The position numbers and the translations under genes are program-made. A stretch of 63,993 nucleotides of DNA, counting the filler, from Dimargaris cristalligena (Eukaryota), in NCBI GenBank assembly GCA_003614675.1. It is 3 parts of 3 records of this genome, joined end to end, with 100 filler letters (N's around TTAATTAATTAA, not from the genome) between each part and the next. Parts side by side here need not be neighbours in the genome. Positions count along the whole stretch, not along the records: positions 22,899 to 45,663 come from ML002625.1; 2 more parts are not named here. The stretch is one strand, 5' to 3'. How positions within the stretch are numbered: position 1 is the stretch's first letter; each line of letters begins with the position of its first letter. Below, in pieces: positions 23,532 to 23,774 of the stretch. The notes under the pieces were generated by a model that saw only the letters and a program-made list of their open reading frames with translations, was not told where the DNA came from and searched no databases.

Positions 23532-23774
23532 CTATTTTTTCTTATGAAATGGACTGGCAAGCACATTGCCAATTTTTTTGAAACCATGCAAAATTTTAGC
23601 TGTAAACTTTTGTGATTTGGATTTGGGAGCAGGGACAGGGGTGGATGGTGCTGGCTTACCTTGGGGTGAGGGTGGGGAATCAAACTCCTCAATTAAGTGC
23701 CTAGGAGGTAGAGCTTCCGTTTGGCTGGTGGTAGCAAGGATGAAGAGTAGAGCAATTATCATGGAAGGCTTCAT
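23532..23774 (-). CDS. Small secreted protein (80 aa) with cationic amphipathic C-terminus
   Basis: ATG in an AAAATG context, signal-peptide-like MKPSMIIALLFILATTSQTEA, Pro-rich spacer, basic tail KSKSQKFTAKILHGFKKIGNVLASPFHKKK; TATATA about 110 bp upstream. Confidence 0.65.
   Translation of the reverse strand: MKPSMIIALLFILATTSQTEALPPRHLIEEFDSPPSPQGKPAPSTPVPAPKSKSQKFTAKILHGFKKIGNVLASPFHKKK

Follow-up and report, generated by a model that had tools for sequence, protein, structure and literature searches.

An unannotated secretory ORF of the mycoparasite Dimargaris cristalligena predicted to encode a Lys-rich amphipathic helical peptide

A 2021 review splits fungal antimicrobial peptides (AMPs) into peptaibols and defensins (PMC8583803), and candidalysins are described apart from these, as hydrophobic cytolysins forming a family of their own (PMC8787473); that fungi deploy antimicrobial effectors is an established idea (PMC9438471). 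Candidalysin, the Ece1-III peptide of Candida, is rich in Ile, counts 3 Lys among its 31 residues and is released by Kex2 cleavage at KR sites (PMC8787473, PMC5784256). An ant pilosulin-like prepropeptide consists of a signal, a Pro/Ala spacer and a basic helix (PMC6356579). The Dimargaritales are parasites of other fungi, which they exploit via an appressorium and a biotrophic haustorium, and their habitat is almost exclusively dung (PMC9866270). In Dimargaris cristalligena subtilases are expanded (PMC9866270, PMC6784888); its genome is a single-cell co-assembly annotated with the JGI pipeline (PMC6784888). A literature search in which most subscription journals lay outside the coverage returned no paper on a peptide of the kind described here in Dimargaris.

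The ORF of interest, 80 codons on the minus strand at 23532..23774 (ATG at 23774, TAG at 23532) and modelled as unspliced, lies in a window of 63,993 nucleotides, by which we mean the whole stretch of joined contigs that was analysed. It is 633 bp from the left end of the contig occupying 22899-45663. That contig is preceded by a 100-nt spacer in which runs of N surround a six-frame stop linker (22799..22898), and an identical spacer of 100 nt marks the second contig join, at 45664-45763. The first join rules out the genes left of 22799 as neighbours of the ORF; on that side lies a RIO2 kinase ORF (3969-5045) that matches a Dimargaris cristalligena protein at 100% identity. The gene that does neighbour the ORF upstream, at a distance of about 2 kb, is a secreted, intron-containing, Pro/Ala- and Lys-rich gene on the same strand (25876-26856, minus) with an RR site after its signal. 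It gives a weak match, below the cut-off, to the RlpA-like double-psi beta-barrel family (PF03330, E=0.0012) and has no similarity to the 80-aa protein beyond Pro content.

The 80-aa protein has no Cys, Trp or Tyr and one Arg in all. Its residues 1-21 (23712..23774, minus strand) read as a signal peptide, with Lys at position 2, a hydrophobic core at 5-14 (Kyte-Doolittle 9-mer values up to 3.5) and a T-E-A cleavage context; by our own signal-peptide heuristic, two of the 163 window ORFs of at least 50 aa pass, the other being the secreted gene at 26856. Directly after the predicted signal cut comes L22-P-P-R25 (23700..23711, minus strand), a putative four-residue propeptide ending at an LxxR Kex2-type site with Leu at P4, Pro at P2 and, at P1, the protein's only Arg; these four residues are all that separates the two predicted cuts. 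All three suit the extended Kex2 motif, in which P4 is Leu, P1 is Arg and P2 accepts Pro as one of its five best alternatives (PMC8528282). The R25 codon is AGG, AGR triplets making up 8 of the 259 Arg codons in window exons. A processing scheme drawn up in the earlier note had left this site out. The other matches to Kex2-type motifs, at 66, 78 and 79, are KK pairs, and nowhere in the 80-aa protein is there a KR or RR site to free the helix described below. KK is a minor Kex2 site (PMC6339444), and cleavage at K66-K67, which lies within the helix, would split it.

Maturation had instead been suggested to proceed by dipeptidyl trimming of an acidic X-Pro propiece, in the manner of melittin. 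Dipeptidyl peptidases are blocked where Pro follows the dipeptide; trimming would therefore stall at the very start of the spacer, because the first dipeptide exposed by signal cleavage, L22-P23, has Pro next. Ste13-type enzymes take off XA and XP dipeptides after a Kex2 site (PMC6339444); the dipeptide that follows the LxxR site is His-Leu. The X-Pro/X-Ala positions are broken at 24-32, and only 45-50, just before K51, offer three consecutive X-Pro. On this pattern melittin-style maturation was rejected. The likely mature product is a peptide of 52-55 aa that keeps its Pro-rich arm: residues 26-80 (6.0 kDa, charge +7) or, should the terminal Lys be removed, 26-77; a product beginning at His26 would weigh about 5.6-6.0 kDa. 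The tail ends in three Lys (23535..23558, minus strand), a putative substrate for the Kex1 carboxypeptidase; such trimming is possible and uncertain, because mature candidalysin retains its terminal Lys (PMC5784256).

Residues 26-50 (23625..23699, minus strand) form a Pro/Ser/Thr-rich arm, largely disordered in the AF2 model (block pLDDT 55-62), in which a short helix at residues 25-32 is proposed with low confidence. The arm holds 8 Pro, 4 Ser/Thr, 3 acidic residues and 1 Lys. Earlier described as acidic and Pro-rich, the spacer deserves the second adjective and barely the first: residues 22-50 as a whole contain 3 Asp/Glu and have a net charge of -1. The remaining residues, 51-80, do have the composition first attributed to this secreted, Cys-free protein, with 9 Lys, no Asp or Glu and a charge of +9.

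Within this tail AF2, run on the single sequence, predicts a cationic amphipathic helix at residues 53-72 (23559..23618, minus strand; block pLDDT 83 and 91, pTM 0.30). On a helical wheel, where Gly and His sit on the boundary, its hydrophobic face is made up of F57, I61, L62, F65, I68, V71 and L72, in agreement with the F, I, L, F, I, V, L periodicity pointed out in the earlier note. The hydrophobic-moment calculation recommended there gives, on the Fauchere-Pliska scale, 0.59 for the best 18-mer, residues 55-72 (mean hydrophobicity 0.43, charge +4). Composition-preserving shuffles reach this value in 162 of 20000 cases for the tail and 113 of 20000 for the mature part; for 11-mers the moment is marginal, being reached by 1294 and 861 of 20000 shuffles, respectively. 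At angles of 100-110 degrees the moment is 0.53 and 0.45, at other angles no more than 0.31. The 0.59 of residues 55-72 also exceeds the moment of all 3390 18-mers from ten window proteins, of which the highest scores 0.588 and nine reach 0.535, the moment of residues 57-74. That highest-scoring 18-mer is an ordinary RhoGAP helix with a charge of +4 and a mean hydrophobicity of 0.10, so amphipathic cationic helices are not specific to AMPs. Hydrophobic residues account for 33% of residues 51-80, 44% of 55-72 and 47% of 59-77. AMPs are typically about 50% hydrophobic, with charges from +2 to +11 (PMC8583803), a range that includes both the +9 of residues 51-80 and the +7 of residues 26-80.

On physicochemical grounds, then, the peptide resembles a linear cationic AMP, and it is a member of no named family. 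With magainin, cecropin and piscidin types it shares a signal peptide, the lack of Cys, a predicted Lys-rich amphipathic helix of about 20 residues, Gly/His at the boundary and the charge range; it differs in having no sequence match to them in Pfam or the PDB, no processing site directly before the helix, an apparently lower hydrophobic share, no Trp, and a fungal origin. The order of parts in melittin and pilosulin prepropeptides, a signal peptide, a Pro/Ala spacer and then a basic helix, is found here too, but the Dimargaris spacer is not an unbroken X-Pro/X-Ala run, is weakly acidic, and could not be trimmed as far as the helix. Candidalysin, offered earlier as the main fungal example, is likewise fungal, gene-encoded, Cys-free, helical and amphipathic, and matured through the Kex2/Kex1 pathway that the Dimargaris peptide is predicted to use. 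It is nonetheless a poor likeness: an Ile-rich peptide with few Lys, bounded by KR sites in a 271-aa precursor, as against a single-unit precursor of 80 aa without KR or RR and with a tail that is 33% hydrophobic and carries +9. Since the Dimargaris peptide is the less hydrophobic of the two, it seems better suited to membrane binding of the antibacterial type than to cytolysis. Nor did we find the KEP arrangement, KR/RR-bounded peptides in a multi-peptide or repeat precursor, in a protein with one Arg. K2PP effectors have in common with it an LxxR motif in the N-terminal half, here L22-P-P-R25; the Dimargaris pro-piece has just four residues, and its mature part would be a disordered arm plus one helix, with no folded domain. 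A functional analogy can be drawn with the peptaibols of Trichoderma, which are linear, amphipathic, membrane-active peptides of mycoparasitic fungi; they are made non-ribosomally and contain much Aib, whereas this peptide is ORF-encoded, hence ribosomal, and strongly cationic.

Searches for relatives covered annotated proteins and prokaryotic and phage DNA, and are weak for sequences of 80 aa. A word-index protein search returned 7 candidates of near length, none with E<=10, and 459 longer candidates, none of which matched. With phmmer against 1.84 billion representatives there was no accepted homologue; the one match, to a 1822-aa tandem-repeat protein along which 11 stretches aligned, was rejected as low-complexity. 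The ESM Atlas, queried with the whole protein and with the tail, held no homologue; Pfam and NCBIfam gave no family match, and the PDB sequence search no AMP-family match, for the tail or the mature part; Foldseek against the PDB gave 0 matches. No homologue appeared in phage DNA by tblastn, and none of 600 pattern matches in prokaryotic genomes was confirmed. The paralogues for which a TBLASTN search had been suggested are likewise missing from the window, where tblastn found none for the 80-aa ORF. An exact protein look-up found 0 of 5 sequences: the 80-aa ORF is absent, and the other four, being unspliced ORFs, are uninformative. These empty family scans and homologue searches agree with the idea that this secreted Cys-free peptide is of no described family; with no homologue found, conservation of the helix is not demonstrable. 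A possible remnant of an EasH dioxygenase (PhyH-type), suggested by a single phmmer match in the PDB (E=0.0077), was dismissed as chance because no PhyH profile matches: the Pfam model recognizes neither the ORF nor any of 39 stop-free stretches in 22899-25800.

Whether the ORF behaves as coding sequence was assessed with a model that took the window exons as its training set and allowed for CpG loss, a correction that presumes mostly synonymous decay and so favours the ORF. Its coding log-likelihood ratio was 8.4 and 14.0 bits, the medians of simulated stop-free null ORFs being -25 and -36; null ORFs reached its score in 1 of 244 and 0 of 212 cases, so that it beats 455 of 456. Held-out exon pieces scored as low in 2 of 50 and 6 of 50 cases, which puts the ORF at the low end of real exons. 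Without the CpG-decay correction the score is -7 to -3 bits, far above that of the other five frames. By themselves, codons 59-80 look non-coding, at -3 to -12 bits whichever of the six settings is used. Non-coding DNA simulated to a total of 6 Mb yielded 3209 ORFs; the signal and helix tests were each passed by 7 of them and no ORF passed the two together, and a looser helix threshold allowed one null ORF in 3 Mb to pass both. These thresholds had been chosen on the 80-aa ORF after the fact. On the minus strand the ORF is framed by a TATATA 114 nt upstream of the ATG (23883..23888), after which come a leader rich in pyrimidines and a start context rich in A, and by an AATAAA, a candidate poly(A) signal, about 160 nt past the stop (23368..23373); TATATA counts as weak evidence because TA runs are common in the window. 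On the strength of the signal, the LxxR site, the coding score and these framing elements the ORF is very probably a real, previously unannotated secretory gene.

The gene sits beside a repeat. A dispersed, LTR-like, CpG-depleted element (22899..23323; 1 CpG against 18 expected), cut by the contig end, finishes at 23323, 208 bp past the ORF stop. A second copy, about 76% identical, lies at 44879-45322; of the features of a solo LTR, TG...CA termini and a target-site duplication, both copies show the CA end, at the same point, the opposite end being lost at the contig end in the first copy and having no placeable counterpart in the second. In 57 stop-free stretches around the two copies there was no Pfam match better than E=0.076. 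The LTR-like relic that had been placed some 210 bp away is real as a dispersed repeat, and no more than LTR-like. The description of the site as a typical effector context comes down to one repeat at a contig end, and that repeat marks a CpG-depleted zone that takes in the gene and where silencing is possible. Around the second copy stand two tRNA-Cys(GCA) genes (44436-44507 and 45447-45520, minus strand), 99% identical and 1012 bp apart, possibly reflecting tRNA-targeted insertion or local duplication.

The CpG-depleted zone takes in the repeat, the 3' flank, the ORF and the promoter (22899..24200), with an observed/expected ratio back at 0.9 beyond 24200; this ratio is mostly 0.5-1.2 in the window and 0.0-0.1 from 22000 to about 24000. 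Repeats and contig ends (21700-24200, 44850-45400 and, in part, the stretch after 45764) are the only places where CpG drops close to zero, and at the second copy, too, depletion stays near the repeat, a distribution that points to repeat-targeted CpG methylation in Dimargaris. Deamination of methylated CpG leaves depletion of this sort behind, although the review that describes it gives 5mC in early-diverging fungi as near-undetectable and makes no mention of Zoopagomycota (PMC13297926). The ORF itself has 1 CpG where 10.4 are expected, with none in the 156 nt upstream, and a GC3 of 0.39, as against 0.60-0.72 in twelve window exons. Its pyrimidine-G codon junctions are T|G in 10 of 10 cases (Fisher p=0.002) and NCG codons number 1 for 6.4 expected. 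Among Pro, Ala, Ser and Thr codons the synonymous product, NCA, is seen 8 times for 2.75 expected, and the non-synonymous one, NTG, twice for 3.75. That CpG was lost mainly to synonymous codons suggests that the protein was kept under selection during decay; the signal is not clean either way, because there are likewise 10 C|A junctions, whose direction is the non-synonymous one, and every count here is low.

Two other accounts of the locus concern the gene rather than the peptide. The gene may have been silenced or be decaying, or, less likely still, the frame may be a chance ORF: the repeat would have landed downstream, CpG methylation extended over gene and promoter, and the locus been mostly off since. 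We consider this unlikely. The CpG and GC3 deficits of the ORF and its upstream region are what it predicts, as is the confinement of depletion to the vicinity of the repeat at the second copy; genes beside TE clusters are reported to be repressed in CpG-methylating Basidiomycota (PMC13297926), and the 80-aa ORF is absent from public annotation. Against it, nothing interrupts the frame, the signal and LxxR site are present, as are the start context and AATAAA, and the NCA/NTG asymmetry points to selection, subject to the C|A count just given; the absence from annotation is blunted in that 'transcriptom' occurs 0 times in the main text of the annotation paper (PMC6784888), so a short gene could have been missed. 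Use of a splice donor inside the ORF is less probable again, and distinctly so. A strong 5' donor-like motif, AAG/GTAAGC, probably cryptic, lies at 23654..23662 (minus strand) with its cut at 23659, and would allow a 199-nt intron, whose removal loses the helix and yields a different 68-aa protein, or a 60-nt in-frame intron, which shortens the arm and keeps the helix from residue 59. The 13,896 nt of sense exons contain no AGGTAAG, against two in 17,474 nt of intergenic DNA. GTAAG, which occurs once in those exons, does favour a true donor, but chance occurrence is common, as it appears 14 times in the same DNA antisense. For comparison we placed 13 introns, 7 by peptide continuity (of 10 attempted) and 6 by judgement without a homologue check, leaving out several donors that could not be placed; they are 123-350 nt long, mostly start with GTAAG, and have a YTRAY branch motif in 13 of 13, in many cases 40-95 nt away from the acceptor and accompanied by an extended AG-free zone. 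The 199-nt candidate, which would join to 23460, is of typical length; its CTAG acceptor lies 53 nt from a branch-like CTGAT, behind 53 nt free of AG, and is followed by a 30-codon open frame. The non-coding score of codons 59-80 also speaks against the unspliced model. The base composition of the 199-nt candidate, however, is 35% A and 49% pyrimidine, where the placed introns have 20-28% and 55-63%, and the 60-nt candidate lacks a branch motif and is half the shortest placed length. In all six settings the unspliced model beats the 199-nt one by 26-36 bits and the 60-nt one by 4-13 bits, on content only, splice signals being unscored. Both splice models are therefore disfavoured.

With the unspliced gene taken as the working model, we propose, as a possibility that falls somewhat short of an even chance, that it encodes a secreted membrane-active antimicrobial peptide; that the gene is lineage-specific belongs to this proposal and is given the same standing. 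Judging from the motifs, the signal peptide would direct entry into the ER and Kex2 would clip the four-residue propeptide at R25. The 52-55 residues then secreted would carry a disordered, perhaps O-glycosylated, Pro-rich arm and the predicted Lys-rich helix, and an extracellular protease, for instance one of the expanded subtilases, might, speculatively, shorten the arm. By analogy with magainin- and cecropin-type peptides, the Lys face could bind anionic lipids and the F/I/L/V face insert in the bilayer and cause leakage. Likely targets would be competing dung bacteria or the membrane of the host fungus at the appressorium or haustorium. The toxin, antibacterial or effector activity inferred in the earlier note retains in its favour the cationic amphipathic helix and the small size, predicted secretion and lack of Cys of the protein, and loses the melittin-type propiece and the likeness to candidalysin; toxic or antibacterial activity itself is argued from analogy.

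Two further readings accept the secreted peptide and give it other work. It might be a non-lytic effector, its helix anchoring it to a membrane, entering the host hypha or folding on a host protein, with Lys clusters that could serve as a nuclear or organelle targeting signal; modulating the host rather than killing it would suit a biotroph, whose haustorial lifestyle means that host lysis would harm the parasite. The modest hydrophobicity of the tail and helix core, the retained disordered arm, the similar moment of the RhoGAP helix and the prevalence of LxxR processing among plant-pathogen effectors (about 30% of 120; PMC8528282) are all compatible with such a role. We rate it rather unlikely: there is no folded domain (the low pTM and the empty Foldseek search), and after processing the helix is the sole confident structured element. 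A surface or wall function, in which the helix, like the Rep1 repellent peptides of Ustilago, self-assembles on the surface of hyphae or at an air-water interface, or the polycationic tail takes hold of anionic polymers of the wall as the fungus attaches, appears more unlikely than this, and a shade more so than silencing of the gene. Kex2 processes the Rep1 peptides, which form a coat on hyphae (PMC8528282), and the secreted Pro-/Lys-rich neighbour with its PF03330 match suggests a wall-related neighbourhood; yet the Dimargaris peptide is single-copy and non-repetitive, resembles that neighbour in Pro content alone, and has a net charge of +7 to +9 that would disfavour self-assembly.

Should the antimicrobial reading be right, this would be a ribosomal Lys-rich helical peptide of a Zoopagomycota mycoparasite outside the peptaibols, defensins and candidalysins, and a first molecular handle on the dealings of Dimargaritales with hosts or competitors. 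The larger proposition is more doubtful: that an early-diverging mycoparasite independently evolved a magainin/cecropin-type peptide, a ribosomal counterpart of the Trichoderma peptaibols and a third kind of fungal AMP, and that this is the first seen member of a class of fast-evolving short fungal peptide genes overlooked by annotation. Without activity, the peptide would be one further orphan small secreted protein. The find suggests that unannotated short ORFs in these genomes merit mining.

Elsewhere in the window, an Rfam scan of 21500-26000 gave 0 matches, and the first contig ends in an AT-rich imperfect tandem repeat with a spacing of about 72 bp (22508-22763). The same contig carries two similar multi-pass membrane ORFs without a convincing Pfam family (6107-6793 and 8714-9502, minus strand), and a hydrophobic antisense reading gives signs of a third copy at about 11400-11700 (minus strand); the three, the last centred near 11.5 kb, possibly form a tandem receptor-like family.
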